From assembly GCA_964516435.1 (NCBI GenBank), contig CAZEZP010000051.1:70467-134466 (forward strand): 64,000 nucleotides of DNA, given 5' to 3'. The position numbers and the translations under genes are program-made. Source of the DNA: an uncultured Kofleriaceae bacterium. Lineage in GTDB: Bacteria; Myxococcota_A; Polyangia; HGW-17. Position 1 is the first letter of the stretch. Every line of letters begins with the position of its first letter. The notes under the pieces were generated by a model, which saw nothing but the letters and a program-made list of their open reading frames with translations, did not search any database and was not told the DNA's origin. This document shows, one piece after another, positions 13,632 to 55,249 of the stretch.

Positions 13632-13708
13632 GCGCCCGTAGCTCAGTTGGATAGAGCGTCGGACTTCGAATCCGCAGGCCGGGTGTTCGAGTCACCCCGG
13701 GCGCGCAA
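13632..13708 (+). tRNA. tRNA-Arg (anticodon TCG).
   Basis: It folds as a cloverleaf: acceptor gcgcccg/cgggcgc, D-arm gctcagttggatagagc, anticodon arm tcgga-cTTCGaa-tccgc, T-arm gggtgttcgagtcaccc. Coordinates are ±2 nt. Confidence 0.8.
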
Positions 13709-13712
13709 CGTT

Positions 13713-13788
13713 GGGCCCATAGCTCAATCGGTAGAGCAGCGGACTCTTAATCCGGAGGTTGAAGGTTCGATTCCTTCTGGGCTCACCA
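13713..13788 (+). tRNA. tRNA-Lys (anticodon CTT).
   Basis: gggcccatagctcaatcggtagagcagcggactCTTaatccggaggttgaaggttcgattccttctgggctcacca shows the anticodon loop ctCTTaa, the T-loop ggttcgattcc and a 3' CCA. Confidence 0.8.
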
Positions 13789-40897: not shown

Positions 40898-43800
40898 ATG
40901 TCCATCTATCTCATTTGCTCCCAATGCAAATCGCTTTCGTATTCCCCTGAGGAATGCTGTCCCGCATGCGGCGCCAACCTGGACGGGTCCGCCGCCACCC
41001 CGCCCGAAAAACTGGCAGGAGCCATCCTGGAAAACCGCTATCAACTGGTGGAATACCTGGACCAGGGCGCCATGGCCTGTGTCTACCGGGGCGTACACGT
41101 GGAAGTGGGATCCTCGGTAGCCGTGAAAATCCTCAAGCGGGATTTCCAGCAGGATACCCGATTCCTCGAACGGTTCCAGGCCGAAGCCCGGGCGGCCGGC
41201 TCCCTCAACCACCCCAACATCCTTTCGATCATCACGGTCGGCACGACACCCGGCGGAATTCCCTATCTCATTTCGGAGTTCGTCCAGGGCATCACGCTCA
41301 ACAAGGTCATCCAGCGGGAAGGCGCGCTGCCGCTACCCCGCGCCATCCACATCGCGCGACAGGTGCTCACAGCGCTGGACGAAGCGCACGCGCACGGCAT
41401 CATCCATCGCGACATCAAGCCCGAAAACATCATGATCACGCAGTTGCGCTCCCGGGAGGAGTTCGTCAAACTGCTGGACTTCGGAATCGCGCGGCAGGTC
41501 TACCAGCAGACGCCGCGCCTGACCATCCCCGGAGAACTCTTCGGCACCCCCGAATTCATGGCTCCCGAGGTCATCCGCGGGCAGGACGCCACCGTCGCCT
41601 CGGATCTCTACGCCGTGGGCGTGGTGCTCTACGAGATGCTCACCGGCAGGACGCCATTCACAGGCACGGGAATGTTCGATGTGCTCAAGAGCCATCTCGA
41701 CAAGAATCCCGACCCGCCTTCGCGCTACAATCCCGAAATCCCGGCCGGGCTGGACCAACTCATCCTGCACGCCCTGGACAAGGATCCGCAGCGGCGTCCG
41801 CCTTCGGCCATGGATTTCCGCTTCATGCTCGAAAGTTCCCTCGCGGAAACGCCGGCGCCCACCATCCCCTGCCCCCGTTGCCGCGCCGGCGTGCAGGCCG
41901 GCCTGCGCTTCTGCCCCAATTGCGGCGCGTCCCTGCAGCCTCCCGTTTCCGCCGTGGCTCCAAACGTGCCAGCCTCACCCATGCCCATCTCGACTTCCGA
42001 GGAAATCCTGTATTTCGAGGAGGATCTGCGTCTTCCCTGCGTGGGCCGGGACGAGGAACTCGAGCAGGTGGAAGCCTTCCTCTACAGCGAACACCTGATC
42101 CTGGAGGTCAGCGGTCCCCTGGGCATCGGAAAGACCACATTCCTCAAGGAAGTCATGCGCCGGCAGGAAAAGGACGTGACCTGCTTCCTGTGCGGCGCGG
42201 ACCCGACCCGCACACGCCGCCCCTGGTTCCCGGTGCGGAAACTGTTCGCGCAGGTGCTCTCCCTCTCCGATGTGCCATCCGAAGCGGAGGTTCTCGATTC
42301 CATTGCCGGTTATGCCATCGAACCCGACGACGTGATGCACATCGTGCAGTTCCTGACGCTTCGGCCCTTCTCAGGCGAGATGGAGCGGGCCGTGCGCCTG
42401 CGCGAGCGCATCACATCCATCCTGCGCCTGTTGCTGGCCGGCATCGGCAACCAGCCGCACATGCTGGTCTTCGATGACGTGCACGAATACGACTACATGT
42501 CCCGCCTGTTCATCGACCGCCTGGTGTCGGTGGCCCGGGGCTTCCCGCTCAAAATCCTCGTGGCCTCGGAAGCGGCCCACATCCAGCCCGGCGGCGTGGG
42601 GCGGGCGCTGGTCCTGCGCCGCCTCGACGACGACGTGGTGCAGCCGCTGGTCCTGCAGTCGCTCAAGACATCCGGAGACAGTTACCACAACTACACGGCC
42701 CGCCTGTGCCGTTCGGCCATGGGGCTCCCCCTGCACGTATCCGAAAGCATCCACCTGCTTCTGGAAGGCGGCACCGAACTGGGGTCCAATCTCTCGGACA
42801 TCGTCCAGACCCGCCTGCGCCGTCTGCCCCCCAAGGCCATGCGCATCCTGCAACTGGCCGCATGCTTCGGCGATTGCGTTCCGATCTCGCTCCTCCAGTC
42901 GGCCGAAGGCATGGGCGATGCCTTCCACGATGCCCTGCGCGTGCTCATCAAGCGGGGCTTCTTCCGCCAGGACCCTGGAAACCCGGAGATCATCTGCCTG
43001 CAGCACCCGGCATACGCCCGCATCATTCCGGCACAGATGACGCCTTCCGTAAAGGCCGATTTCCATGCCATCATCCTGGACTACCTCGAGGAAAACAACG
43101 GGCCCTGCCATCTTCTGGCCCACCACGCCCTTTCTGCGGGGCAACTGGAGCAGGCCGTCGCCCACCTCGAGTGCGCGGGCAACGTCTGCGAGGAAGACCT
43201 GGACGACTACAGCGCCGTGGAGAACTACAAGCACGCCTACGACATCGTCAAGATCGCCACGCTGCAGGGGCGCGAACTTTCCCACTTCGCCCACCTGAGC
43301 GCCCGCCTGGGCGACCTGTACCGCTACACGGGACAGACGGCAGCCGCGGAGGAAGTGCTCAAGGAAGGCCTGCTCGTGTGCGAGGACAGCCCCCAGGACG
43401 AGGCCATCATCCTCAGTTCGCTGGCGCGGCTCACGGCGCAGGGCCTGCAGGACGAGGAGCGGGCCGAGACCCTCATCGCCCGCGCGGCGCGCAAGGCCCG
43501 GGAGAGTTCCGATCCCGCGCTGCTGTACCGCGTCTATTTCGACATGAGCACCATCGAAATGAACCGGAAGCGCTATTCCCAGGGCGCCCAGATGCTTCGC
43601 GAGGGATTGCGCATGGTCAGTTCGCTGTCCAACTCCCCGCTGTCCTTCTGGCGGCTCTTCCTGCGGCTGGCGGAATTCGAGTTCCAGTCCGGACAGCACG
43701 AGGAAGCCATCCGCATCCTCATGAATGCGCTCCAGGTGGGAGAAGGCCAGTTGGCGGACCTGCCCAAGGGGCGGATCCACTACCTGCTGGGGCAGTTCTT

Positions 43801-44041
43801 CCTGCGCATGGGCCGGCCGCACGACGCCCAGCCCCACATCGAGAAGGCCGTCGCCTACCTGCAGAAGAACGGGGACCGGCAGGGCGCGGCCGAGGCCTCC
43901 CTGACCATCGCGCAGAGCGCGGCGCAGAACCGCGAGAAATACATCGAGCGCGCCGCCTATCTCTCCCTCCAGATCGGCTGGAAACAGGGCATCGAAACCG
44001 TGGAGAACCTGCGCCGGCCGACACCGCCCCGTCCCCGCTGA
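40898..44041 (+). CDS. Multidomain Ser/Thr protein kinase with zinc ribbon, STAND/AAA NTPase and TPR repeats.
   Basis: The ATG at 40898 lies in the ORF 40790–44041. The N-terminus has a Cys-ribbon (CSQC…CPAC). The Hanks kinase shows VAVK, HRDIKPEN, DFG and APE. A second zinc ribbon is CPRCRAG…CPNCGAS. The P-loop is VSGPLGIGKTT and Walker B is HMLVFDDVHE. The C-terminus carries TPR-like helical repeats. Confidence 0.8.
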   Translation: MSIYLICSQCKSLSYSPEECCPACGANLDGSAATPPEKLAGAILENRYQLVEYLDQGAMACVYRGVHVEVGSSVAVKILKRDFQQDTRFLERFQAEARAAGSLNHPNILSIITVGTTPGGIPYLISEFVQGITLNKVIQREGALPLPRAIHIARQVLTALDEAHAHGIIHRDIKPENIMITQLRSREEFVKLLDFGIARQVYQQTPRLTIPGELFGTPEFMAPEVIRGQDATVASDLYAVGVVLYEMLTGRTPFTGTGMFDVLKSHLDKNPDPPSRYNPEIPAGLDQLILHALDKDPQRRPPSAMDFRFMLESSLAETPAPTIPCPRCRAGVQAGLRFCPNCGASLQPPVSAVAPNVPASPMPISTSEEILYFEEDLRLPCVGRDEELEQVEAFLYSEHLILEVSGPLGIGKTTFLKEVMRRQEKDVTCFLCGADPTRTRRPWFPVRKLFAQVLSLSDVPSEAEVLDSIAGYAIEPDDVMHIVQFLTLRPFSGEMERAVRLRERITSILRLLLAGIGNQPHMLVFDDVHEYDYMSRLFIDRLVSVARGFPLKILVASEAAHIQPGGVGRALVLRRLDDDVVQPLVLQSLKTSGDSYHNYTARLCRSAMGLPLHVSESIHLLLEGGTELGSNLSDIVQTRLRRLPPKAMRILQLAACFGDCVPISLLQSAEGMGDAFHDALRVLIKRGFFRQDPGNPEIICLQHPAYARIIPAQMTPSVKADFHAIILDYLEENNGPCHLLAHHALSAGQLEQAVAHLECAGNVCEEDLDDYSAVENYKHAYDIVKIATLQGRELSHFAHLSARLGDLYRYTGQTAAAEEVLKEGLLVCEDSPQDEAIILSSLARLTAQGLQDEERAETLIARAARKARESSDPALLYRVYFDMSTIEMNRKRYSQGAQMLREGLRMVSSLSNSPLSFWRLFLRLAEFEFQSGQHEEAIRILMNALQVGEGQLADLPKGRIHYLLGQFFLRMGRPHDAQPHIEKAVAYLQKNGDRQGAAEASLTIAQSAAQNREKYIERAAYLSLQIGWKQGIETVENLRRPTPPRPR

Positions 44042-44116
44042 GGCTGTTCGCGCCCTGTGATGAAAACCGCCCGCCGGCCCCCCGATGGGGCGGCATGTGC
44101 AAAAATTGCAGTAAAA

Positions 44117-45448
44117 TCAGGCCTTGACGATGCGATCCCGGTGATGCGCCACGCGCGCGCAGGCGTTGCGCGTGTCCACTACCAACTGGGAGTGCTCCAC
44201 GATGAAATCCCAGTCGTAGGAACTGTGATCCGTGGAAATGAGCACGGCATCCATGGAAGCCAGGAATTCGGGCGTGAGTTGCACGCTTTCCATGCGGAAA
44301 TCGTACTTGCGCATGGGGCTGACGATGGGCACGCGCGGAATGTGCGGGTCGTGGTAGAAAACCTCCGCGCCGCGGTCCTTGAGCAGTTCGATCAACTTGA
44401 GCGACGGGCTCTCGCGCAAATCGTCGATATCCTTCTTGTAGGCCATGCCCAGCACCAGCACGCGCGAGCCCTTGACGGCCTTCTGCCGGTCATTGAGCGC
44501 CCAGGCCAGTTTGTCCACCACCCACTCGGTCACGTAGGTGTTGATTTCCCCGGACACCTCGATGAGCCTCGTGGGGAAGTCGTATTCCCGCGCCTTCCAC
44601 GTCAGGTAGAAGGGATCGATGGGAATGCAGTGCCCGCCCAGCCCGGGGCCCGGATAGAACGGCATGAAGCCGAACGGCTTGGTGGATGCCGCCGCGATGA
44701 CCTCCCAGATGTCGATGCCCATGCGGTCGCACAGCATCTTCAACTCGTTGACCAGCCCGATGTTCACGTTGCGGAAGATGTTCTCCAGCAACTTGCTCAT
44801 CTCGGCCACCCGCGTGGAGGACACGGGCACCACCTGCCCGATGGCCTGCGCGTAGAGGGCTGCGGCCACATCCCGGCAGGCGGGCGTGTAGCCGCCCACC
44901 ACCTTGGGGATGGTGGCCGTGTTGAACTTCTTGTTGCCCGGATCCTCGCGCTCGGGCGAAAAGGCCAGGAAGAAGTCGCGCCCGGCCACGAGCCCCCGGG
45001 CCTCCTCCAGGATGGGCCGCAGCAACTCGTCGGTGGTGCCCGGATACGTGGTGCTCTCCAGCACCACCAGTTGCCCCGCGCGCAGATGTGGCGCCATGCT
45101 GCGGGCCGTTTCCACCACATAGCGCATGTCGGGCTCCCGGTGGTGGTCCAGCGGCGTGGGCACGCAGATCAGGATGGCATCCACCTCGGCGATGCGCGCG
45201 TAGTCGCCCGTGGCCTGGAAAAGCCCCTCGCGCACCAGTTTCTCGATGCGCTCCGGCCCGATGTGCTTGATGTAACTCTTGCCCTGGTTGATCAGTTCCA
45301 CCTTGACCGGATCCACATCGAAGCCCAGCACATGAAATCCCCTGGAGCCGAATTCCAGCACCAGCGGGATGCCCACGTACCCCAGACCGACGACGCCAAT
45401 CCTGAAATTGCGCGACTCGATGCGCGAAATGAATTCCCTCGTGTCCAT
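44117..45448 (-). CDS. Nucleotide-sugar dehydrogenase (UDP-N-acetyl-D-glucosamine/mannosamine 6-dehydrogenase family, WbpA/WecC-like).
   Basis: The Rossmann motif is IGVVGLGYVG. The catalytic-Cys region is GFMPFYPGPGLGGHCIPID. The central and C-terminal domains are typical of UDP-glucose/GDP-mannose dehydrogenases. Confidence 0.85.
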   Translation of the reverse strand: MDTREFISRIESRNFRIGVVGLGYVGIPLVLEFGSRGFHVLGFDVDPVKVELINQGKSYIKHIGPERIEKLVREGLFQATGDYARIAEVDAILICVPTPLDHHREPDMRYVVETARSMAPHLRAGQLVVLESTTYPGTTDELLRPILEEARGLVAGRDFFLAFSPEREDPGNKKFNTATIPKVVGGYTPACRDVAAALYAQAIGQVVPVSSTRVAEMSKLLENIFRNVNIGLVNELKMLCDRMGIDIWEVIAAASTKPFGFMPFYPGPGLGGHCIPIDPFYLTWKAREYDFPTRLIEVSGEINTYVTEWVVDKLAWALNDRQKAVKGSRVLVLGMAYKKDIDDLRESPSLKLIELLKDRGAEVFYHDPHIPRVPIVSPMRKYDFRMESVQLTPEFLASMDAVLISTDHSSYDWDFIVEHSQLVVDTRNACARVAHHRDRIVKA

Positions 45449-46156
45449 GACTTGCATTCCTCCACGGTCCATAGAAGATGACGAATCGCCCCACCCGCCG
45501 CGGGCTGCTTCCTGATCGGCCCGGATGGAGAGCGGCCGCTCGTTCGTACCACAAAAAAACTTTTTGCAACACCCCCGAGATTGGCTTCACGGAAAAAACG
45601 ACCCGACGAGAGCACGGCGGCAGACAGGGCATTTTCGATTTCCTGAAGGATTTCTGCAGGTTGTGGAAACCAGAAAAACGCCGAATCCCGTGCCTTCATC
45701 CGCGGATGGATAGGAAAAAACGCGAAGAGTCCGTTCCGGTTTTTGCAGATTCGATAGCGCCTGCGCGCCTCCAGCCCCCTTTGAAAACACAGGATAATCT
45801 AACGACGGACCTTTCACGGCCCGCATCCGGATTCCCGTCAGGCTTACAGAGCCCGGATGAACACGCGCGTGATGGATGGCGCCATCGCGCGCGGACCGGT
45901 TCGCGCCGCGCGTGCATGGATGGTGCTCCCGCATGTGTCCTAACGTGCCATGCCCGGCGCGCCAACGGTCCCGCCCGCTACCCGTGTCCGAGCCGTGGAA
46001 AATAGTTGGCACGTGGTGGAAACAGTTCCATGAGCGCAACCGCCGACCGCGTCATCCGATCCATCCGGAAAAACGGCAGACGAAACCGGGCGCCAATTAC
46101 TTCGCCCTGCGTTTTTGATTTTTGATTTTCAGTTTCGCATGCATGCTCAAAAAGAA

Positions 46157-48295
46157 TTAATTTTTTTCAGGAAGTGGTTGAACATAAAAATCGTCAATTG
46201 ATTTCCCGATTCGATATACCAGCACACGCTCTCCTATGAACCTTGAAATTTTGACAAGACCTGCTTCAATAAAATCTGCCATCAGTTTTTCAGTGTAGTT
46301 CCTGACTTTTGGCAACCTGTAGAGCAGCGAGACCGTCATTGGAGAGTTCAAGACTACCTTATTGAAAACGTTTGCTACGAACAGGCTTGCCGAAATGATT
46401 CTCGAATATTTTGGTGGAGCGAAATTGATAACGACTGCAAAAATTTTTGATTTTCTGAATTTCTCCATCCTTTGCAGAACATTTTCCACTTTCAGTATGA
46501 TTTTCGAAAATTTCACTACATTTTTCATATTTTTCAATCCATTAGCCAGCGACTTGTTCATATTTTGAAAGTTACGCATGCACGTGAAGAAGTTTATGCC
46601 TCCTGTAATCAACTTGGCCTGAGTCGAATCATAAAAAACAGATGAAAAAGAGGCCGATGATAGGCATGCCCCAATTCGAACAGATCGCAGCGAAGCAAAG
46701 GCTTTCAGTCCTTTTAAAATTTTTTGAACTCCAACCGTTGCCCGGGCAACTCTGGAGATTGTAAAAAATCCTTGAATTATTTTAGAGATTCGAGGAGCCA
46801 CGAATTTCGCGAAAGAATGTCCTAGGAAAGACAGCAGTTTGCCAAGAACGGGAAGTCTGTTGATCAAAACAACTACTGCTAATTCTAATAGTTCCAAAGA
46901 ACAATCTTTAAAAGATGAAAGAATTCGCTCCAAAGTTGTTGGTTTTCTTGGATTTAAATCACCAAATTCATTGACAGTATACCGACTGAAATCGCCATCA
47001 ATGTTTTTTATTTCATCTTTAAAAGTATCTATATCTATATTTTCATTATTTATTGCATCTTCAATATGCATGGCCATATATGGCACCGAATGGCAGCCAT
47101 GCTTTTCAAAAGCCTCCCATATCAACTCATTTACACTTTGCCCCGGAATCCACTCTTCTTTTTCCTGAATTTCTTGAATTGGTTTCAGGCCCAGCCAAAA
47201 AACCAGGCCGGCCTGCTCTGGATAATTTCGAACGCATGACTCGATAGTCCTCCATTGCTCAATATCTTTACGCAACGGCAAGATTTGGCTTAATAAATAT
47301 ATAAAGAGTTCATCCCTGTGCAGTATAACTTCATCAATATAAGGCCGAATCAATTCTTTAAAAATGATTGGATCTGGATACCGTTTCTTTGCGTATTCTT
47401 TCAGGTATTCATACAGGTCTCGGTCGAGAAAATACATTTCGAAGGATTCAGGAAATGAACTGAGAAGGTCAAATTCATACGCTCCGAGCCGGGCAAAAAA
47501 TCCAGCATCGACCTGGTTTGCATATTTCTTTAAAAGCCACAGAGAATTTTCAAAAAGTTCGGCATGTTTTTGAATGTCTTTCCCATGAAGCGTTTCCAGA
47601 TAACCGGAAAACCGGCCAATCCAGATTGCCTCTTCCAGTTCTTTCTTGAAACTGGGCAAATCGTCATAGTTGAATGAAAACATGCCAATGATTTGCCGTG
47701 CCGTTTTTGGAAGGGAACAGAAGGTTGTGGCCAACTGCCGATTGGTTAATGAAAGATGCGTGTAGAAAAGATGTTCATTGCTCCCCCAATTCAAGTTTTC
47801 AGGAACGCACGTCGGTACCCCCCAAATCGACAGCATGGCCATTTCAGGGTGAGCCGCCAGCAGGCGAACGCGATCCTGGATCTCTTGCTTGCTCAATTTT
47901 TCCAGTGGAAATCCGCTTGCGGGAAAAAGTGGATAAAAAGACGATGTCACTTGAACCGAAACGTTGCGGTCAAAACCAAGTTCCTGAAACCGGTTCCAGT
48001 AGCGTTTCAGGTAAGGCGACAGGTAAATGGCGTCGTAAGATATGTATTGGAATGCTAAAATGCCTTCTATTTCAATGCTTTTGGCATACTCACAGGCATT
48101 CGCCGTATTCCGGAAAAAATGAGCGATTGCATCAACATATTGGGGAAAAATGTTTTTGTATGCTTCTTCACATATATTTTCCGCCCAATGATGGGAATCC
48201 TGTTTTTTTTCTGCTGATTGTGCCTGGGAAACAAAGGAGACCAAAAAAACAAATGGCAAAACAAAAAAAAGTGTAGATTTCATGATTCCTTTCAT
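46157..48295 (-). CDS. Secreted 712-aa hypothetical protein of foreign (low-GC) origin.
   Basis: The signal peptide is MKGIMKSTLFFVLPFVFLVSFVSQAQSA. The protein is K/N/F/I-rich (AT-rich codons) with no recognisable catalytic motif. It is a long uninterrupted ORF in AT-rich DNA. Confidence 0.6.
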   Translation of the reverse strand: MKGIMKSTLFFVLPFVFLVSFVSQAQSAEKKQDSHHWAENICEEAYKNIFPQYVDAIAHFFRNTANACEYAKSIEIEGILAFQYISYDAIYLSPYLKRYWNRFQELGFDRNVSVQVTSSFYPLFPASGFPLEKLSKQEIQDRVRLLAAHPEMAMLSIWGVPTCVPENLNWGSNEHLFYTHLSLTNRQLATTFCSLPKTARQIIGMFSFNYDDLPSFKKELEEAIWIGRFSGYLETLHGKDIQKHAELFENSLWLLKKYANQVDAGFFARLGAYEFDLLSSFPESFEMYFLDRDLYEYLKEYAKKRYPDPIIFKELIRPYIDEVILHRDELFIYLLSQILPLRKDIEQWRTIESCVRNYPEQAGLVFWLGLKPIQEIQEKEEWIPGQSVNELIWEAFEKHGCHSVPYMAMHIEDAINNENIDIDTFKDEIKNIDGDFSRYTVNEFGDLNPRKPTTLERILSSFKDCSLELLELAVVVLINRLPVLGKLLSFLGHSFAKFVAPRISKIIQGFFTISRVARATVGVQKILKGLKAFASLRSVRIGACLSSASFSSVFYDSTQAKLITGGINFFTCMRNFQNMNKSLANGLKNMKNVVKFSKIILKVENVLQRMEKFRKSKIFAVVINFAPPKYSRIISASLFVANVFNKVVLNSPMTVSLLYRLPKVRNYTEKLMADFIEAGLVKISRFIGERVLVYRIGKSIDDFYVQPLPEKN

Positions 48296-48560
48296 TTCCG
48301 TTCACCTTTCCTTTCGCCGCCGCTACCGTAGCCGGGAACGGCATCGCACCGATTGGAGCCAGGCACGCTTTTGTATCGCCAGAGAACATTGAGTTGATCA
48401 AAACTTCTGCACATCTTTCCTTAATAAAGTCACCTGCGCGGGGTCCTCTTAATTTTGTTAGCGTACCACACTTGATTTACTGAATACAAGTGCGAATTTT
48501 ATTTAGCCACCTTCTGCATGGCCCGACGCCGTGGTGTGGCTTTGAGGCGTTGCCCTATGT

Positions 48561-49627
48561 ATGTATGTCACACTGGTTGAAGTTGTTGAGTTGAGTCGAC
48601 TCGAGGAGCCAACTCAAAGGAATCCTCGTGGGCATCAGGCGAATCCAGAAATGTACCCCATTGACCACGCCTTTCTCGTTGTGAATAATCTCCGCTCAGG
48701 CAGGGTGGAATCCATGAATCTTCAGCCAATCAACCCGCAAAAGCTCATCGAAAGTTTCACTTCCTTGAACATCTGGAGCAAAGGGGAAATACGCGCGCCA
48801 CACAAACCGCTTCTTGCTTTGCTGGCCTTAGCTGTGCCCAGAATCAGCCAAGATTGTCAACTTTTGAGGAACTGGAGCCATTGATCCGGCATCTTCTTGT
48901 TACATTCGGTCCACCGGCCAGAGTCATCCATCCCGAATATCCATTCTGGCATATGAAGAACGACGGGATTTGGGAAGTGACAACCTCTGACGGCTATACA
49001 TATGAACCGAGTAGAAGTCCGACGAAGAGGATGCTCTTAAAACATAATGCAAAGGGTGGATTTTTACCCGATATTTTTTCAGCACTCCAGCAGGATCAAG
49101 AACTAATCAATCTTTTGGCCATGCGAATTTTATCTGCCCATTTTCCCGAGTGCCTGCATAACGATATTCTCGATGCAGTCGGCTTGCTACCCGGTGAATT
49201 CGGATCTCCTCCGGCTGCAATACCAGCCACGCGAGATCCTGGATTTCGCGAAAAAGTACTGGTTACCTATGGATATCGTTGTGCAGTTTGCGGCTTTGCG
49301 CTACGCCTCTATGAGAAACCTGTCGGCCTTGAAGCCGCGCATATTAAATGGCGCATGGCAAATGGCCCAGATATCGAATGCAATGGTATTGCCTTCTGTT
49401 CCCTGCATCGCAAATTATTTGACCTCGGATGCTTTACGATTGGCGATGCCAGTCAACTGCTTCTTTCTGATGCGCTCAATAACGCATCTGGTGACGTAGC
49501 GCAAACCACTGGCTTACTGGGAAAAAAATTGTTTCTGCCATCTAGGCAAGACCACCAGCCGAAGGAGGAATATCTTGCATGGCACAGAAAGAATGTTTTC
49601 AAGGGAGATGTCATGCGGAGCGGATGA
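48561..49627 (+). pseudogene. HNH-family (HNH_2/restriction-type) endonuclease gene split by a frameshift near 48850.
   Basis: The N-terminal segment (ORF 48561–48884; MNLQPINPQKLIESFTSLNIWSKGEIRAPHKPLLALLALA…) and the C-terminal segment (ORF 48854–49627, TTG start) are in different frames and overlap by about 30 nt. The C-terminal HNH motifs are GYRCAVCGF…EAAHIKWRMANGPD…NGIAFCSLHRKLFD. Confidence 0.5.
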
Positions 49628-49859
49628 ACGGGCGTCTTTGCCATCATATTTTCCGCACAGTCTCACTGGTCTGGTCCTTTGAAAGTGGCACTAGGGGGGC
49701 ATGGCGAAAAAAGACCTCGCACGACACGTGCAAAATCGTACTGGCGCAGGGTACGACGGATGCGGCATCTGCGTGCGGCGTTGCCTGCGGGCGCGGAATG
49801 CGGCGTCGGCCGGTTCGCCTCGGTGGCGCCCGCATGCAGTGACTGGCGCGCGACGTTTC

Positions 49860-50000
49860 GGGGCATCCGCATCGGATGTGACACACGTGCGCTTCCTGGT
49901 TGCTGCAGAACGGGGTGGACCTGGCAGATGGTGCTGGCGCAACTGGGGCATTCGACGCTGGAGACGACTTCGCGCCATGCGCACACGGCCCTGACCACCC
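49860..50000 (+). pseudogene. Decayed C-terminal fragment of a tyrosine recombinase/phage integrase.
   Basis: Across three reading frames it reads …DVTHVRFLVAAE / LLQNGVDL / WQMVLAQLGHSTLETTSRHAHTAL. This parallels the integrase box-II consensus …[36 protein letters not shown], with at least 2 frameshifts. The catalytic Tyr is replaced (RHAH instead of RYAH). No upstream integrase body is present. Confidence 0.5.
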
Positions 50001-50146
50001 CGCCAAGCGCGGTGCAAACGGCTCCCGCCAAGCGCGATGCAAACGGATCCTGCGAGTCCATCCCCCCAGCCGGGCATCCACTGGATGCACAGAACACCTC
50101 GCCAAGCGCGGGGCAACGGCTCTCGCCAAGCGCGGAGCAACGGCTC
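50000..50146. repeat. Two tandem pairs of a roughly 23-bp direct repeat (4 copies).
   Basis: cgccaagcgcggtgcaaacggctc and cgccaagcgcgatgcaaacggatc are adjacent at about 50001–50048. cgccaagcgcggggcaacggctc and cgccaagcgcggagcaacggctc are adjacent at about 50100–50145. Confidence 0.6.
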
Positions 50147-50258
50147 CCGCAGGTCGCGGCGCGCCTTCGGCAAGGTTCGTCAAGATTCGGTGGCGGAGCG
50201 CTGCAAAATCCGCATCATCAAGGTCCAGAGAATTCACACAGAAACCGAATCCCCGAAA

Positions 50259-50345
50259 ACTGCGGGAGAATTCTGTCCGTCCACACTGCGGGAGAATTCT
50301 GTCTGTCCACAGGGGGGAAAATTCTGTCCGTCCACACTGCGGGAA
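50259..50345. repeat. 3.5 tandem copies of a roughly 26-bp direct repeat.
   Basis: The units are actgcgggagaattctgtccgtccac, actgcgggagaattctgtctgtccac, aggggggaaaattctgtccgtccac and actgcgggaaaattg…. They are directly contiguous with no spacers. Confidence 0.6.
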
Positions 50346-50452
50346 AATTGCGGCCGCCTGCCGGGAAACGCATCAAACAGCTTGCCTTTCCCTTCGCTTG
50401 TTTCCTATAGTGCATCCGGGTCGTTCTTGAACTTTCGAAAGAGGTGAAATCC

Positions 50453-51361
50453 ATGGAAAACATGACACTGGCCATTGGCGGACTCATCGACGGCGGATCG
50501 CTGTTCTTCTTCTTCAGCACCTTCCCCATCCTGTTCTCCATCGTCCTGATTCCCATCGCTTTCCTGATCACGCTGGGAATCCTCAAACTGTACGAGCCCA
50601 AGGACGAAGACTACAAGCCGGATCCGCTCCTGCACATGAAGGCCGGCATGTACTTCCTGCAGATTTTCATGGTGCACCTGCTGGTCATGGGCGTCTTCCA
50701 GTTCATCGACATCATCCTCAGCCAGATGACCGACGAGAAAATCCCGTTCGGCAACATCAAACTGCCCATCGGCGTGCTGGTGGGATCGGGGTCCATGCTC
50801 CTGCTGCTGGAACTGCTCCTGGTGAAGTTCGGCGTGAAGGAAAACTATCATCCCCGGCGCCTGATGTACGGCATCGCCATCTTCCTGTTCGGCTTCTTCG
50901 GCACGGTGGCGACGTTCCTGTTCCTGTCCGGGCTCTTCGAATTCTTCCCCAAGGGCGCCGCGTTCCACGTGCCGCTCGCGGCCATGCTGGTGTACCTGCC
51001 GGTGTTCGTCGTGGGCGTGATCTACTACAAGCACGAATTCGCCGAAGAGAAGGAGGCCCAGACGTTTTTGCCCGCGTCCTTCGTGCAGAAGGCCGACCAG
51101 ATGATGGCCCAGATGCCGGGTGCTTCACTGGCCGGATTCGGCGCTGCTCCTTCTGCGGGTTTCGGCGCGCAGCCGATGGCCCAGCCCATGATGGCCCAGC
51201 CCATGGCGCAACCCATGGCCCAGCAGTTCTCCCAGCCCATGGCCCAGCCGCAGGCCGCCCCGGCCGCCGCGCCCGGAACCTGTTCCACCTGCGGCCAGCC
51301 GGCCCGCTTCATCACCCAGTACAACCGCTACTGGTGCGACACCTGCCAGAAGTACCTCTGA
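50453..51361 (+). CDS. Polytopic membrane protein with C-terminal (M)AQP repeats and a CxxC…CxxC zinc ribbon, hypothetical.
   Basis: The ATG at 50453 follows agaggtgaaa. About 6 TM helices are present. The low-complexity segment is QPMAQPMMAQPMAQPMAQQFSQPMAQP. The terminal ribbon is CSTCGQ…WCDTCQKY. Confidence 0.6.
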   Translation: MENMTLAIGGLIDGGSLFFFFSTFPILFSIVLIPIAFLITLGILKLYEPKDEDYKPDPLLHMKAGMYFLQIFMVHLLVMGVFQFIDIILSQMTDEKIPFGNIKLPIGVLVGSGSMLLLLELLLVKFGVKENYHPRRLMYGIAIFLFGFFGTVATFLFLSGLFEFFPKGAAFHVPLAAMLVYLPVFVVGVIYYKHEFAEEKEAQTFLPASFVQKADQMMAQMPGASLAGFGAAPSAGFGAQPMAQPMMAQPMAQPMAQQFSQPMAQPQAAPAAAPGTCSTCGQPARFITQYNRYWCDTCQKYL

Positions 51362-51408
51362 TTTTCCCGCTTCTTCATCCCCCGGAAAAATAATGTCTTC
51401 CCCGTGAT

Positions 51409-52137
51409 TCAGCGCAGGACGGCGGCCGCGCAGACATCGAGGATCGCGCCCGTCACCTGGTGCGGGCAGAAGAGCATCGAGAGCACGGCATCGGCCACCT
51501 CGTCCGCGGTCGCAAACCGCCCCGTGACGGCGCCGGCCCGCAGGCGCTCCTGGCGCTCCTTGGGAATCACCGCGAGCATGTCGGTTTCCACGGGCCCCGG
51601 CGCCACGGCATTGACGGTGACGCCATAGGCCCCCAGTTGCAGGGCGAAACTCTTGGTGGCATTGATCAGCGCCGCCTTGGTGGCGCCGTACCAGACATCG
51701 GGATGGCCGATATAGCCGGCGATGGACGCCACGTTGACCACGGCCCCGCCCCGGCGCTCCATCATTCCCGGCGCGACCGCGCGCATGAGTTCCACGGGAG
51801 CCACGAGATTCACGCGCAGGGAACGCTCGCGCATGTCATCGGGATAATCCTTCCACGTCAGCGCGTGCATCACACCGGCATTGTTGACCAGCACGGACAC
51901 GGGCCCCAACGCATCCACCATTTCGCCGATCCGCTCCACATCGTACAGATCGAAGGAAACCGTCTGCACCCGCGATTCCACCCCTGCAAAAGCGCCCTCG
52001 GGGAAACTCCGCGCCAGCGCCACCACGTCGAACCCCTCCTGCGCCAGTTTCCGCACCACCGCGCGGCCGATTCCCCGGCTGGCTCCGGTCACCAGTGCAA
52101 CACCAAGCGATTGCAATCCTTTTTTTCGATCTTGCAT
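51409..52137 (-). CDS. SDR-family short-chain dehydrogenase/reductase.
   Basis: VALVTGASRGIGRAV is the TGxxxGxG cofactor motif. NAG is present, the active site is YGATKAAL (YxxxK), and the protein is 242 aa. Confidence 0.8.
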   Translation of the reverse strand: MQDRKKGLQSLGVALVTGASRGIGRAVVRKLAQEGFDVVALARSFPEGAFAGVESRVQTVSFDLYDVERIGEMVDALGPVSVLVNNAGVMHALTWKDYPDDMRERSLRVNLVAPVELMRAVAPGMMERRGGAVVNVASIAGYIGHPDVWYGATKAALINATKSFALQLGAYGVTVNAVAPGPVETDMLAVIPKERQERLRAGAVTGRFATADEVADAVLSMLFCPHQVTGAILDVCAAAVLR

Positions 52138-52172
52138 GAAATTTTTCCTTTTTTATTGCAATAAAATTTCAT

Positions 52173-53096
52173 TCAACCGATGACAGGCCACTTGCGGGCG
52201 GCCACCATCTCGTCCATGGCCTTCTGCATGGTGCCCACCACCTCGTCATAGCAGGACTGGAGGAAGGCTTCATCCCCGAGACGCTCATGTCCGCCGGGCC
52301 ACTGCATGGGCGGCAGGAACCGGATGTCCATCTTGGCCGGAAGCGGCAGGTAGGGGAAGAACCCCAGCGTGATCCCGGCCGGAAGCGCGAAAGCGATCGG
52401 ACAGACCTCCGTGCGCAGGCGTTTCTTGAGGTCCAGCATCGCGGCCAGCTTCTCTCCCCGCGTGAGCACCACCCAGGCTTCGTGCGCGCCCACGGAAACC
52501 ACGGGCACGATGGGAACCCGCGCCTGCATAGCAATGCGCAAGAATCCCTTGCGATTGGCGAACTCGATGCGGTTGCGCATGGAAAACGGCCGGAAGGTGT
52601 CCATGTCGCCGCCCGGATACACCAGCACCAGCCCGCCGGCGTCCAGCCCCATGCGCGCGGCATCCGGGTGGGCGCGCAGGCCGCCCACGCGCTGCAGAAA
52701 ATCCGCCAGGGAAGGTTCCCGGTAGAGATAATCGTGCCCCAGCGCATATACCGCCCGTTCGAAGCCCTGGTCTTCCAGGAGCGCCCCCACCGTGAGGAAG
52801 GAATCCACCGGCTGCAGGCCACCGTTGTGGTTGCCCACCAGCAGGGCGGCGCCCTCCCGGGGAACGTGCTCGAACCCTTCCACTTCCAGGCGGAAGTAGC
52901 GCCGGGCCAGCGGCATGATGATCCCGGTCAACTGCCGGACGAATTCCGGATCGCGCATCTCCGGATGGAACCCGGCGTCCGGGCGGGGCGGATCCATGCC
53001 CAGCAGGAGGCGGCCGTAGCGGTACAGGGTCACCGGCGGCACCAGATAGGTGGCCGCCGCGGAAAACAGCGATTTCCATCCGGATTCCTGCGTCAT
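52173..53096 (-). CDS. Lysophospholipid (1-acyl-sn-glycerol-3-phosphate) acyltransferase family protein.
   Basis: The start is at MTQESGW within the ORF 52173–53201. The acyltransferase motif I is LLVGNHNGGLQPVD (HxxxxD). A later YPGG-type motif is VLVYPGGDMD. Confidence 0.7.
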   Translation of the reverse strand: MTQESGWKSLFSAAATYLVPPVTLYRYGRLLLGMDPPRPDAGFHPEMRDPEFVRQLTGIIMPLARRYFRLEVEGFEHVPREGAALLVGNHNGGLQPVDSFLTVGALLEDQGFERAVYALGHDYLYREPSLADFLQRVGGLRAHPDAARMGLDAGGLVLVYPGGDMDTFRPFSMRNRIEFANRKGFLRIAMQARVPIVPVVSVGAHEAWVVLTRGEKLAAMLDLKKRLRTEVCPIAFALPAGITLGFFPYLPLPAKMDIRFLPPMQWPGGHERLGDEAFLQSCYDEVVGTMQKAMDEMVAARKWPVIG

Positions 53097-53122
53097 GACC
53101 GGAACACCTTCTCCTGGAGGTT

Positions 53123-53746
53123 TCACTTCGACTGCAATTCGATGGTCTGGCGATCCACGAAGTTGGCCTTGGTTTCCAGGGAAGTGCGGGTGATCTCCCA
53201 CAGGATGTCCTTGAGCACATAGGTGCCCTTGGCCTCATAGCCGCGCGCGATGGCGATGCGCAGGGATACCGGCGCCCCTTTGGGCGGCTTGAATCCCTTG
53301 CGTCGCACGGAAAGGAAACTCACCTCGTTGCTGCCCTGGCGGAAATACGTGGTGATGTCCACTACTTCCTGGTCCTTTCCGCCCAGCACCCGCCGCACGA
53401 ATTTGCCGTTGACGTGCACGTCGATGTCATAGCCGGCATCGGCCCGGTCCGGCTTCGGGAAGGTCACGAGATAGAAACTGGTAGCCTTGTCCGGCTCCGC
53501 CGCCGGCGTCCTGGCAGGCTCCTTCGTGCCGCCCAGCGCCTCGAAACTGTAGCCGGGCGCGATGATGTACAGATTGCCCTTGCTGTCGAACTTGATGTTG
53601 ACGCACTTGAGTTCGACATCGGTGATGAGGTATGAAGCCAGATCGATGTCATTGATGAAGATTTTCTTGCCCGCCTGCTGGGCTGCCGCCGGCCGGGGCC
53701 CCGCCAGTAGCATCGCAAAAGCCAGTACCGCCATCATCCGTTTCAT
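53123..53746 (-). CDS. Secreted hypothetical protein.
   Basis: The start MKRMMAVLAFAMLLAGPRPAAAQ gives a signal peptide. The rest is a beta-rich 180-aa domain. It is the last gene of the SDR-acyltransferase operon on the minus strand. Confidence 0.5.
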   Translation of the reverse strand: MKRMMAVLAFAMLLAGPRPAAAQQAGKKIFINDIDLASYLITDVELKCVNIKFDSKGNLYIIAPGYSFEALGGTKEPARTPAAEPDKATSFYLVTFPKPDRADAGYDIDVHVNGKFVRRVLGGKDQEVVDITTYFRQGSNEVSFLSVRRKGFKPPKGAPVSLRIAIARGYEAKGTYVLKDILWEITRTSLETKANFVDRQTIELQSK

Positions 53747-53848
53747 CGTGACGCTCCTTTCCCCCGCGCGCCGCATGCGAAACGCGGGAAAACGACGTTT
53801 CCTCCATCTTCCTACGCGCTGCATCCGCGCCTATTCTGCCGCTCCCGC

Positions 53849-55249
53849 TCAACGCCGGAAATGGGGATACTGGCAGCAGGGATCGGTCTGCGGGCAGGTG
53901 CAGGTCCCTCCCGCATGGCAGCAGGGCGCGGATGGCGCAGTGCAATCATAGCGCAGGCACCGGAACATGGCGCGGTCCTGCGGATAATCCACGGTAAACT
54001 CGAAAAAACTCAAAAACGGGTGCCCCAGCACGAGGTCGATTTGGGGCAGATCCGGAAGCGTCTCGGCCCACAGCCCCTGCCAGTACTGGCGCGAGGAATC
54101 CACCTCGGCCACCGAGAAACCCTGGTTCTGGTTGTTGCGCTGCAGATCCACCTCGGCCACGGCCGCACCCGAGCTTTCCGCATCCCGGAAGTACGGGTTG
54201 GGAAGCGTCGGATTGCGCCGGGCCCATTCCTGTCCGCGGCGCCGGGCCAGTTCCTCGCAGGCGCCCAGGCTGGACGACACCCCCCCGATGACCGCCAGCC
54301 GGGCGATGTTGACGATCTGCCGCGTCATCTGCACGCCCTCGGGCAAAGGCAGCGCCACATCCCGGATATCGGGGATCTGGCCGCGCCGTTCCATGTCTGA
54401 GCGGATGCGCGCGAATCCGCCGTCGGTGGTCATCAGCGTGGGCGTTCCCGTCGCCACGAGCGCGAACATGTCCACACCGGAGACCGGATAGCGCCCATCG
54501 ACCGCGGGCGGTCCCAGCGTCGGATCGTCGGGGCGCAGGGGAAAGGGGTCGGGATTCATGCACACCTGGACCGTGACCCGGGTAGCCGGCAGATCATGCA
54601 CATGACCATCCAGCATGAACTGGCCGCCGCCGCCCAGTTGGTACGGCACCAGGGCGTATCCGTCGGCGGCCAGATCCGATGCCGTCGCCGGCTGCTCCCG
54701 GAGCAGGAGGATATTGGGCCAGAAGCGATCTTCCTCGTCCCAGAAGAAGGAACACTGGCGGTCCTCGCGGTAGAAGAAGCGCACAGCGAACTTGCGCAGG
54801 ACGTCTCCCCCCAGGATGCCCTGAAGTTCCACCCCCGGCATGAGTTTCTGCACGTCGGGGACGGCCCATGCCTGCAGACTCGAGAAAGCCACGCGGGCCG
54901 CCACGGGCTGCCCCGTCCCTGCGGAAAGCGCATCCACCACGGCCAGGCTGGTGGTGCGAAACACCATGGCACCTGTAGGCAGAGCCGCATCCTGAATGAC
55001 CGACATGGGCGCCTCGGTGGCGATGACGAAGGACTGCACGTCGGCTGAGCCGGCCAGTGGCGCCGAGGAATGCGCGGCATAATCCAGGACCACGCCCACC
55101 ATGGGCAGACGGGGACCAGCCGCATCATCCTGGGGCCGCACCTGGATGGGGATGCAGTATTCCAGAAACAGCAGGCTGTCGCCGGAACCGCAGGATGCCG
55201 TCGAGAGGAGAACGAATGCGACTGCTGCGAGAATCCGTTTGGCCCGCAT
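53849..55249 (-). CDS. Lipoprotein with a Cys-rich C-terminal tail, hypothetical.
   Basis: MRAKRILAAVAFVLLSTASCG gives a signal peptide plus lipobox. The C-terminus is CLRYDCTAPSAPCCHAGGTCTCPQTDPCCQYPHF. Confidence 0.5.
   Translation of the reverse strand: MRAKRILAAVAFVLLSTASCGSGDSLLFLEYCIPIQVRPQDDAAGPRLPMVGVVLDYAAHSSAPLAGSADVQSFVIATEAPMSVIQDAALPTGAMVFRTTSLAVVDALSAGTGQPVAARVAFSSLQAWAVPDVQKLMPGVELQGILGGDVLRKFAVRFFYREDRQCSFFWDEEDRFWPNILLLREQPATASDLAADGYALVPYQLGGGGQFMLDGHVHDLPATRVTVQVCMNPDPFPLRPDDPTLGPPAVDGRYPVSGVDMFALVATGTPTLMTTDGGFARIRSDMERRGQIPDIRDVALPLPEGVQMTRQIVNIARLAVIGGVSSSLGACEELARRRGQEWARRNPTLPNPYFRDAESSGAAVAEVDLQRNNQNQGFSVAEVDSSRQYWQGLWAETLPDLPQIDLVLGHPFLSFFEFTVDYPQDRAMFRCLRYDCTAPSAPCCHAGGTCTCPQTDPCCQYPHFRR

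Follow-up and report, generated by a model that had tools for sequence, protein, structure and literature searches.

A short stretch of AT-rich DNA in the window (the whole 64,000-nt stretch analyzed here) raises the question of whether it is an old integrative element that has lost its mobility, as originally predicted, and what the two genes that it carries encode.

The low-GC islet and its right flank

The 50-nt composition profile falls from 0.60–0.70 GC to 0.36–0.50 between ∼46100 and 49640. This ∼3.5-kb islet (46100–49640, no strand assigned) has 43% GC, with 40% in its 712-residue ORFan and 48% in its HNH gene, compared with 63.1% for the genome, in which 1-kb windows below 49% GC form the bottom 1%; the low-GC island of the original prediction is real. 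Codon usage had been put forward as a check, and the ORFan and the HNH gene have GC3 values of 0.40 and 0.44 versus 0.87 and 0.80 for the flanking genes. The islet is foreign in composition. It was not found in the 30 related genomes compared, where the same genes at genome-typical GC were to have counted against the prediction. X3, a relative diverged by ∼5%, has the islet at the identical site; the islet is older than the split from this relative. A GC-rich intergenic repeat in the left flank (45590–45775, plus strand), with at least five other copies in the genome, lies outside the islet, and an Rfam scan of 44000–52000 gave no match at E ≤ 1.

The predicted decayed C terminus of a tyrosine integrase is indeed present at the right flank. 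Positions 49843–50041 (plus strand) encode a dead C-terminal remnant of ∼60 aa, which matches PF00589 at 29.7 bits over profile positions 128–168 of 172. A stop replaces the second catalytic Arg, the catalytic Tyr is His, and there is one frameshift, leaving the R-K-H-R-H/W-Y catalytic set of tyrosine recombinases incomplete. The 5′ three quarters of the gene are missing, on the islet side, and the low-GC DNA ends 215 nt away. Three paralogs in the genome are 82%–90% identical to the remnant (82%–85% in a DNA comparison; 71% at the amino acid level for the C78 paralog); two lie at contig ends, and one is truncated beside an IS-like ORF. With these copies and a host-like GC content of 64%–78%, the remnant resembles a recombinase gene resident in the genome in several copies. 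The tandem repeats reported beyond it could be measured as three arrays within 49999–50349 (no strand assigned), with a 25/24-nt unit in four copies (25 nt × 2 and 24 nt × 2; 49999–50050 and 50098–50150) and a 26-nt unit in 3.5 copies (50259–50349). The 25/24-nt unit derives from the final codons of the integrase, and the four integrase copies are homologous only as far as the first 25-nt unit. X3 skips 48 nt at 50317–50364, about two 26-nt units.

The original prediction can be read as treating ∼45500–50350 as a single decayed integrative element, in which the ORFan and the HNH gene arrived through the element's own integrase, with the repeats as att sites. We regard this as possible but doubtful. 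Tyrosine integrases often flank defense islets, the remnant lies close to the low-GC end and has lost its 5′ part exactly on that side, and the homology of its copies stops at a unit that this locus has in four copies, which would suit an element end or att core. The remnant itself, however, is unlike the cargo in GC content and has three paralogs in the genome. The proposed att-repeat check returned border matches at chance level (best direct-repeat score between the borders 21, shuffle mean 18.7, maximum 28), so that no left-border repeat exceeds shuffle level; no repeat family spans the islet, and no tRNA lies within 32 kb of it, the nearest being at 13632–13788. The empty site is not definable because synteny in relatives breaks right at the UDP-sugar dehydrogenase, where similarity to the closest named relative also stops, and no same-genus genome has the flanking genes on one contig. 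Given that att repeats, tRNA, and empty site were not found, the own-integrase reading is only partly supported: the foreign composition, the dead integrase, and the adjoining repeats stand, but the integrase is host-like and multi-copy.

The locus shares with integrase-flanked genomic and defense islets its AT-rich foreign DNA, its accessory and defense cargo, a tyrosine recombinase gene with repeats alongside, and a distribution in which related species were not found to have it. It differs from them in its undefined ends, in the lack of a detected att duplication, tRNA target, or intact integrase, and in an integrase fragment that is compositionally native and multi-copy. The explanation that we favor, and consider probable as a whole, is that 46100–49640 is an AT-rich islet gained by horizontal transfer and since fixed in a species-level lineage of a bacterium, probably of the Myxococcota, that lives in hot-spring, mat, and subsurface habitats; the islet has an intact ORFan and a most likely dead SBD-HNH gene. 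It would then abut the last ∼60 codons of a tyrosine recombinase gene that is resident and multi-copy; the mode of its insertion is not recoverable from sequence.

The 712-residue ORFan

The ORFan (P0001) occupies 46157–48295 on the minus strand. Its start codon, the ATG at 48295, has a Shine-Dalgarno site (AAGGTGA) 6 nt upstream, and a start at the alternative ATG (48283) would give a 708-aa form, P0004. Residues 1–25 (48221–48295, minus strand) form a predicted Sec-type signal peptide, with K2 and K6 in the n-region, a 15-residue hydrophobic core (Kyte-Doolittle peak 2.15, residues 4–22), and, judged by eye, a putative S-Q-A cleavage motif before Q26. This would direct the product to the envelope or beyond. 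The mature protein would comprise an acidic, all-helical N-domain (residues ∼30–460) and a strongly basic, strain-variable C-domain (residues 461–712; 46160–46915, minus strand). The C-domain has a net charge of +26 and no Trp, is predicted to be helical and amphipathic, and holds a strain-variable stretch at 46470–46740; AT pressure alone could account for its FLINK-rich composition. Internal repeats do not rise above shuffle level. Single-sequence AlphaFold2 models have no usable fold, with a pLDDT of 35.4 for the whole protein and 44.1 for residues 455–712.

The original prediction of a 712-aa ORF with a signal peptide-like N terminus and no known domain holds, with no match in Pfam, NCBIfam, PADLOC, or PHROGs, and the homology check suggested for it, in effect run here, found no homolog by sequence or profile. 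A word search of 5.8 billion clusters and phmmer against 1.84 billion cluster representatives recovered only the ORFan itself, and the searches as a whole gave no more than self and near-identical matches; the best phmmer match in the PDB has E = 0.3. The phage, plasmid, and viral collections IMG/VR, PLSDB, and INPHARED gave no match, a six-frame phmmer search of its own genome found no paralog at E ≤ 10, and neither P0001 nor P0004 has an identical product on record. ESM Atlas feature searches with the whole protein, the N-part, and the C-part gave 0.78–0.85 or nothing, and shuffled proteins score likewise. Among the runs listed for the ORFan, none is an RNA run.

Comparison among strains places the variation mainly in the C-domain. 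The reading frame is unbroken in the independent contig L011, and all nine differences within the ORF fall in codons 519–609 (seven non-synonymous, two synonymous). In X3, an 88-nt block of the C-domain (46780–46867) is swapped for 94 nt, and the adjoining segments are 7%–10% diverged, compared with 4.2% for the N-domain and 5.1%–5.3% for the flanking genes; net length changes within the ORFan are 0 and +6 nt. The 7:2 ratio of C-domain changes would fit neutral drift and diversifying selection alike. DGR-type mutagenesis was considered as the source of this variation and rejected, the substitutions not being adenine-specific. L012, a contig of another metagenome, has 164 nt of the ORFan lying between IS sequences, so that either the ORFan is dispensable or L012 is chimeric. 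A predicted-exported protein of 712 residues that is open in several strains and has no detectable relative among ∼15 billion predicted proteins offers a clean test case for the origin and persistence of large orphan genes.

It could be argued that the ORFan is non-functional, a long open frame on foreign DNA that drifts neutrally or is silenced. The missing homolog, domain, and confident fold, the lack of an RNA run among those listed, the preponderance of non-synonymous changes between strains, the IS-flanked fragment, and the AT bias mirrored in the C-domain would all fit, but 712 stop-free codons at 40% GC far exceed chance: the ORFan has 714 open codons, and no ORF exceeds 211 codons when the islet is shuffled 500 times. 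L011 keeps the frame, the net indels in X3 are 0 and +6 nt, and the N-domain in X3 is conserved at least as well as the flanking genes. The neighboring HNH gene and integrase have decayed, unlike the ORFan, which also has a canonical Shine-Dalgarno site and a predicted signal peptide. We judge a non-functional ORFan unlikely and retain an intact, lineage-restricted gene as part of the explanation favored above.

As to its role, our best guess, a tentative one well short of likely, is that the ORFan is an envelope- or membrane-acting accessory conflict protein, which is engaged in phage or surface exclusion or in antagonism of competitors and makes contact through its variable basic domain. The secreted effector, toxin, or adhesin of the original prediction is guesswork. 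That domain turns envelope-level conflict into a concrete, testable hypothesis. A bolder proposal, which we consider distinctly improbable, is that the ORFan is the founding member of an as yet unsampled family of conflict proteins, Sec-exported and acting at the envelope (a new exclusion factor or a secreted antagonistic toxin), whose basic helical C-domain would contact its target under diversifying selection and which would have come with the restriction gene from an AT-rich donor. The ORFan is best set beside taxonomically restricted (orphan) exported proteins, with the helical membrane-inserting domains of colicin-type or SseC-type proteins as the loosest of analogies; it likewise has a predicted signal peptide, an all-helical prediction, and a basic amphipathic, strain-variable C-terminal domain. 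However, it resembles none of these proteins in sequence, in profile, or in any usable way in structure, making this an analogy rather than membership, and the long hydrophobic hairpin of pore-forming colicins is absent from it.

The SBD-HNH restriction gene

Divergent from the ORFan, across an intergenic region of 418 nt, is the gene for the predicted HNH_2-type nuclease, an assignment upheld by a PF13391 match (26 bits, cut-off 21). By profile and alignment, this gene (48714–49627, plus strand) is more than a generic HNH gene, being a pseudogene of an SBD-HNH phosphorothioate-dependent restriction endonuclease. A candidate sigma-70-like promoter, TTGACC-17-AATAAT (48661–48689, plus strand; consensus match only), lies 25 nt upstream of its start. 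The 3′ part matches NF045808 at 259.5/262.9 bits (profile positions 35/44–284; curated cut-off 180 bits), and the 5′ part matches positions 2–35 in the other frame at 30 bits. Frame 0 covers 48714–48833 and frame 2 covers 48836–49624, with a 1-nt deletion at ∼48834–48836, and the product aligns over its full length with nine homologs with one X at the frame break. Homologs carry PF26340 (DNA-SBD_ScoMcrA) and HNH_2, and the product matches the ScoMcrA SBD (5ZMM) at E = 2e-7. Its own fragment aside, no sequence in 5.8 billion clusters exceeds 47% identity to it, and its 56-aa N-terminal product, used as a query, returned nothing on record.

The sulfur-pocket residues H30-K31 and Y76-P77 do not vary across the alignment and match ScoMcrA H116, R117 (K here), Y164, and P165; PMC6224610 describes what these residues do. 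The HNH and zinc residues C190, C193, H210, N224, C229, and H232 (ββα-metal motif, Cys4 zinc site) are all present, and the nearly invariant H233 is Arg. In the intact enzyme, the N-terminal sulfur-binding domain would engage invading DNA by docking on an Rp-phosphorothioate, with the HNH domain cutting near the docking site. The deletion now falls between the two halves of the pocket, cutting off H-K from Y-P and from the nuclease, and the gene is most likely dead as a result. We file it as a pseudogene of the SBD-HNH family on account of the frame break, which is identical in L011; an X1 contig over 48111–48920 has one indel whose position was not placed, and the frameshift may thus be polymorphic. 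Self-restriction as the cause of the frameshift was considered and rejected, the host genome (97.5% complete) having no dndC and only a sub-threshold DndD-like match.

The two-domain layout and length of ∼300 aa are those of SprMcrA/EcoWI-type enzymes. As in the SBD-HNH family at large (NF045808; PF26340 plus PF13391; ScoMcrA SBD, PDB 5ZMM/5ZMO), the profile score is above cut-off, the pocket, HNH, and zinc residues are kept, and the gene stands without dnd modification genes, as is usual for the family. It departs from the family in the break between the pocket halves and in Arg at position 233. For a catalog of phosphorothioate-sensing enzymes, this gene is a useful addition, being well conserved, freshly broken, and from a lineage without a close sequenced relative.

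The two genes of the islet might also be read as a single defense system, with a sensor-nuclease and an envelope effector. They are adjacent and divergent, have similar GC3 values, and were probably co-acquired, and other low-GC islets of the genome hold defense genes. SBD-HNH enzymes act singly, however (PMC7461809), the neighbors beside the three HNH homologs checked are unrelated, and the large unannotated neighbors of one of them have no similarity to the ORFan. With no PADLOC model matching the ORFan, and with the nuclease broken while the ORFan is intact, we hold such a pairing to be very improbable.

Junctions of the islet and genomic context

The left junction is spanned by contigs from other runs or metagenomes, X1 (44700–46257) and L011 (45955–48860), and the right junction by L010 and X1 contigs (49008–50252); two other runs yield Logan contigs that show both junctions, and a JGI contig carrying 18 SNPs shows them too. 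The composition profiles answer the concern, raised with the original prediction, that the compositional shift had been misread. A chimeric join or mis-binned contig, conceivable in a 104-contig metagenome-type assembly with low coverage in a source-like run, is effectively refuted, since independent contigs reproduce both junctions, host-like DNA flanks the segment left and right, and, on its 147-kb contig, the segment is 46 kb away from the start and 27 kb away from the end.

Overall, the locus is routine AT-rich foreign DNA in a GC-rich genome, and only its orphan protein is unusual. The genome has ∼20 low-GC islets, several with defense genes, those in the other islets comprising TIR, two GmrSD, HD/dGTPase-like, and HSDR_N genes; this genome stores its defense genes in many small low-GC islets.

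Extent, reproducibility and setting of the islet

Between ~46100 and ~49640, the GC profile of the window drops from 0.60–0.70 to 0.36–0.50, with edges that lie, at 50-nt resolution, at 46100–46150 on the left and 49600–49750 on the right. This islet has a GC content of 43%, compared with 63.1% for the whole assembly (3.88 Mb in 104 contigs), and 1-kb windows below 0.49 GC make up only 1% of the genome. GC3 is 0.40 in the orphan gene on its left and 0.44 in the HNH nuclease gene on its right; the flanking genes, for a UDP-sugar dehydrogenase and a short-chain dehydrogenase, have values of 0.87 and 0.80. Both composition and the GC3 comparison thus uphold the low-GC island of the original prediction, and the islet is real, foreign DNA.

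The window corresponds to positions 70467–134466 of contig C51, which is 147 kb long. Contigs from four public runs were placed on positions 42000–54000. The microbial-mat run, probably the sample from which the assembly came, yields fragments 100% identical to the window, and the sediment run identical fragments at low depth. A near-identical strain is present in the subsurface run, with contigs across the left junction (44700–46257) and the right junction (49008–50252); the latter span is that of a 1245-nt Logan contig (SRR6186653), with six mismatches, every one in the repeat region. L011, a 2906-nt contig from a JGI metagenome, matches 45955–48860 with 18 mismatches and no gaps. The hot-spring run contains a relative ∼5% diverged (the flanking genes differ at 141 of 2644 nt and 141 of 2781 nt), which has the islet at the same site (contigs at 44655–46132, 46323–47002, 46976–48009, and 48265–50316). 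Independent contigs across both junctions, together with this relative, rule out an assembly artefact, and the islet predates the split from the relative. Just outside the left edge, positions 46016–46095 form a variation hot spot, with 7 substitutions in 80 nt relative to L011; at 46016 and 46018 the window has G and both the subsurface and hot-spring runs, like L011, have A. The hot spot adjoins a possible hairpin and T-run at ∼46080–46125.

The islet was not found in 30 related GTDB genomes (seven of the same genus), in which the flanking genes are carried on separate contigs. In the closest named relative, a mine MAG labelled Haliangium ochraceum, the dehydrogenase protein is 82% identical, but similarity to the window stops directly past its gene, so the proposed comparison with related genomes defined no empty site.

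About 20 further patches of 1–4 kb with less than 50% GC occur in the genome, on contigs C2, C13, C24, C25, C33, C53, C57, C62, C76, C78, C96, and C97. The larger ORFs in these patches include genes for a TIR-domain protein (C25:82946–84589), two GmrSD-type modification-dependent nucleases (C53:16259–18064 and C62:50844–52490), an HD/dGTPase-like protein in 28% GC DNA (C96:578–1981), an HSDR_N nuclease-like protein (C24:1675–2958), a UvrD-like protein, and several signal-peptide proteins or lipoproteins, one of them a lipoprotein with LVIVD repeats (C25:71815–72873). By eye only, C13 has ORFs resembling glycosyltransferase and MBOAT genes, and C78:137827–140003 has ORFs resembling recF and dnaN. 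The islet thus belongs to a group of small AT-rich islets, and defence-type genes occur in several of the others that were sampled. Taken as a whole it is ordinary biology, and its interest lies in the orphan protein.

The orphan protein and its variation between strains

The longest open frame of the islet (46157–48295, minus strand) runs for 714 codons, whereas the longest in 500 shuffles of the islet reached 211. Its first ATG is preceded, 6 nt upstream, by AAGGTGA. Residues 1–25 comprise K2 and K6, a 15-residue hydrophobic core (Kyte-Doolittle 2.15), and S-Q-A ahead of Q26, an n-h-c arrangement that, judged by eye, is predicted to be a classical signal peptide. The 712-residue protein with a predicted signal peptide therefore stands as described. 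The N-domain (residues 31–460) is acidic (net charge −20), aromatic rich, and predicted to be helical; the C-domain (residues 461–712) carries a charge of +26, is rich in K, S, V, F, and L, lacks Trp, and is predicted to form long helices.

The absence of recognisable domains also holds. No match was found in Pfam, NCBIfam, PADLOC, PHROGs, or PDB, nor in IMG/VR, PLSDB, or INPHARED; a word search of 5.8 billion clusters and a phmmer search of all 1.84 billion representatives each returned the protein itself alone, and no paralogue is present in its own genome, even at E ≤ 10. ESM Atlas feature scores lie within the noise range, no RNA runs are listed for the gene, and two AlphaFold2 runs gave pLDDT values of 35 and 44, so a fold comparison is not justified. 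The protein is a true orphan.

Comparison between strains separates the two domains. In the hot-spring relative, the N-domain (46976–48009) differs at 4.2% of positions with no net length change, against 5.1%–5.3% in the flanking genes, while two C-domain segments differ at 7.0% and 10.4%, and 88 nt (46780–46867, codons ∼477–505) give way to a block of 94 nt that does not align, so that 6 nt are gained net. These in-frame net lengths, and an N-domain divergence that does not exceed that of the flanks, argue for a gene that is probably translated and constrained. In L011 the frame is intact and all nine differences fall within codons 519–609 (46470–46740), the remaining ∼1870 nt being identical; by our own estimate, such clustering has a probability of roughly 10^-6 under uniform placement. 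Seven of the nine are non-synonymous, and because pN about equals pS over these codons, the pattern fits neutral drift as well as diversifying selection. The subsurface strain has 25 differences in 1720 nt of the gene, several-fold above its flanks. In L011 and the hot-spring relative, the C-domain is the more variable part.

A second JGI contig (L012, Ga0101944_10043388) bears on how strongly the gene is required. Its positions 296–459 correspond to 47741–47578, a 164-nt piece of the gene at 98% identity, lying between transposase-like sequence (positions 1–295, not found in the genome studied here) and an IS3-family element, on whose far side the contig continues into the low-GC patch of C62. 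Either an IS has disrupted the gene in another population or the contig is a chimera built across IS copies; the fragment counts against a strong requirement for the protein. That the protein has a conflict role at the envelope is a long-shot guess, which we would sooner bet against, its sole grounds being the defence-type genes of other islets, the predicted signal peptide, and a basic domain that varies between strains.

A frameshifted SBD-HNH nuclease gene

The original prediction of an HNH_2-type nuclease holds as to family and is refined here to an SBD-HNH enzyme with a broken reading frame. The 3′ ORF (48854–49627, plus strand) matches NF045808, the “phosphorothioated DNA-binding restriction endonuclease” family, with 259.5 bits (cut-off 180) over profile positions 44–284, and positions 2–35 are encoded in another frame at 48714–48833. 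With a single X at the break, the 304-residue product aligns over its full length with nine homologues and shows no length anomaly, so the lesion is a 1-nt deletion within the codon that follows Ala40 (∼48834–48836). This product retains the sulfur-pocket invariants H30-K31 and Y76-P77 and the HNH/zinc-site invariants C190, C193, H210, N224, C229, and H232; the sole replacement is that of the nearly invariant H233 by Arg. Its N-terminal 150 residues resemble the SBD of ScoMcrA (PDB 5ZMM, E = 2e-7), with H-K aligned to the H-R of that protein and Y-P to its Y-P. Work on ScoMcrA has shown that its sulfur cavity is built from these residues and that most homologues have Lys for Arg (PMC6224610).

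Homologues number 839 at E ≤ 1e-3, all at most 47% identical, and carry PF26340 (DNA-SBD_ScoMcrA) and PF13391. The neighbours of three are unrelated to one another and to the orphan gene, so the two islet genes are not a conserved pair. SBD-HNH enzymes are solo, dimeric nucleases that target PT-modified incoming DNA and are rarely dnd linked; N-terminally truncated SprMcrA becomes a non-specific nickase (PMC7461809). One homologue (P0011, on contig L098 and a sibling contig) adjoins a DndE gene and a PLD/helicase gene, and its locus is one of the rare SBD-HNH/dnd linkages.

The frameshift recurs in an independent assembly, since L011 aligns gap-free as far as 48860; the broken codon is T/A polymorphic at position 48835. 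A sigma-70-like promoter is predicted 25 nt upstream of the start, and inspection of internal TTG and ATG starts found no convincing ribosome-binding site. Self-restriction was rejected as the cause of the lesion, since the host genome has no detected dndC and only a sub-threshold DndD-like match. The gene is a recognisable member of the SBD-HNH restriction family, most likely inactivated recently.

Integrase remnant and repeats beside the islet

The right flank holds the decayed tyrosine integrase C terminus and tandem repeats that had been described there. The remnant (49843–50041, plus strand), read across three frames, matches PF00589 with 29.7 bits over profile positions 128–168 of 172 and is 71% identical to the C terminus of an integrase fragment on C78. 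It has a stop in place of the second catalytic Arg, one frameshift, and His for the catalytic Tyr, and its GC content is 64%–78%. Its three paralogues in the genome are 82%–85% identical to one another in DNA and ∼90% in protein. Two of them extend past the ends of their contigs, and the C78 copy is truncated beside an IS-like ORF.

Homology among the integrase copies stops at the first unit of a 25-nt repeat, which derives from the final codons of the integrase coding sequence (in the PPSAVQTAP region). This unit occurs four times at 49999–50150 (25/24 nt) and once in the C78 copy, and is followed in the window by 3.5 copies of a 26-nt unit. In the subsurface strain, five of the six differences over 49008–50252 lie at or just past the second (24-nt) pair and one in the first pair. 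The hot-spring relative skips 48 nt at 50316–50365, about two 26-nt units, so the length of this array differs between strains.

Although the 25-nt units are compatible with the end or att core of an element, the left border lacks any counterpart of the right-flank repeats and no tRNA lies near the islet, so it is only possible, and we consider it doubtful, that the remnant is the islet's own integrase. The adjacent fragment is dead and probably native. Of the old, immobile integrative element originally proposed, the foreign DNA and the dead integrase stand; an att pair, a tRNA, and an empty site were not found, and an Rfam search found nothing at the locus. A GC-rich intergenic repeat of ∼120–190 nt (conserved core GGCGGCAGGCAGGGCATTTTCCGATTTTC) is not the att site of the islet. 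At least six copies are present in the genome (window 45590–45775, C18:22–207, C47:54322–54387, C78:36897–37015, C71:929–1047, and C65:169–221), several at contig ends, and those in the window and on C78 lie upstream of a minus-strand gene; the repeat could be a promoter/5′-UTR module or a small mobile repeat.

At C78:37254–43106, a 193-residue PF00589 paralogue fragment lies downstream of an IS-like OrfA remnant and two large genes (1026 and 427 residues, without Pfam domains) in DNA of 48%–60% GC; the locus may be a further decayed island belonging to this recombinase family.
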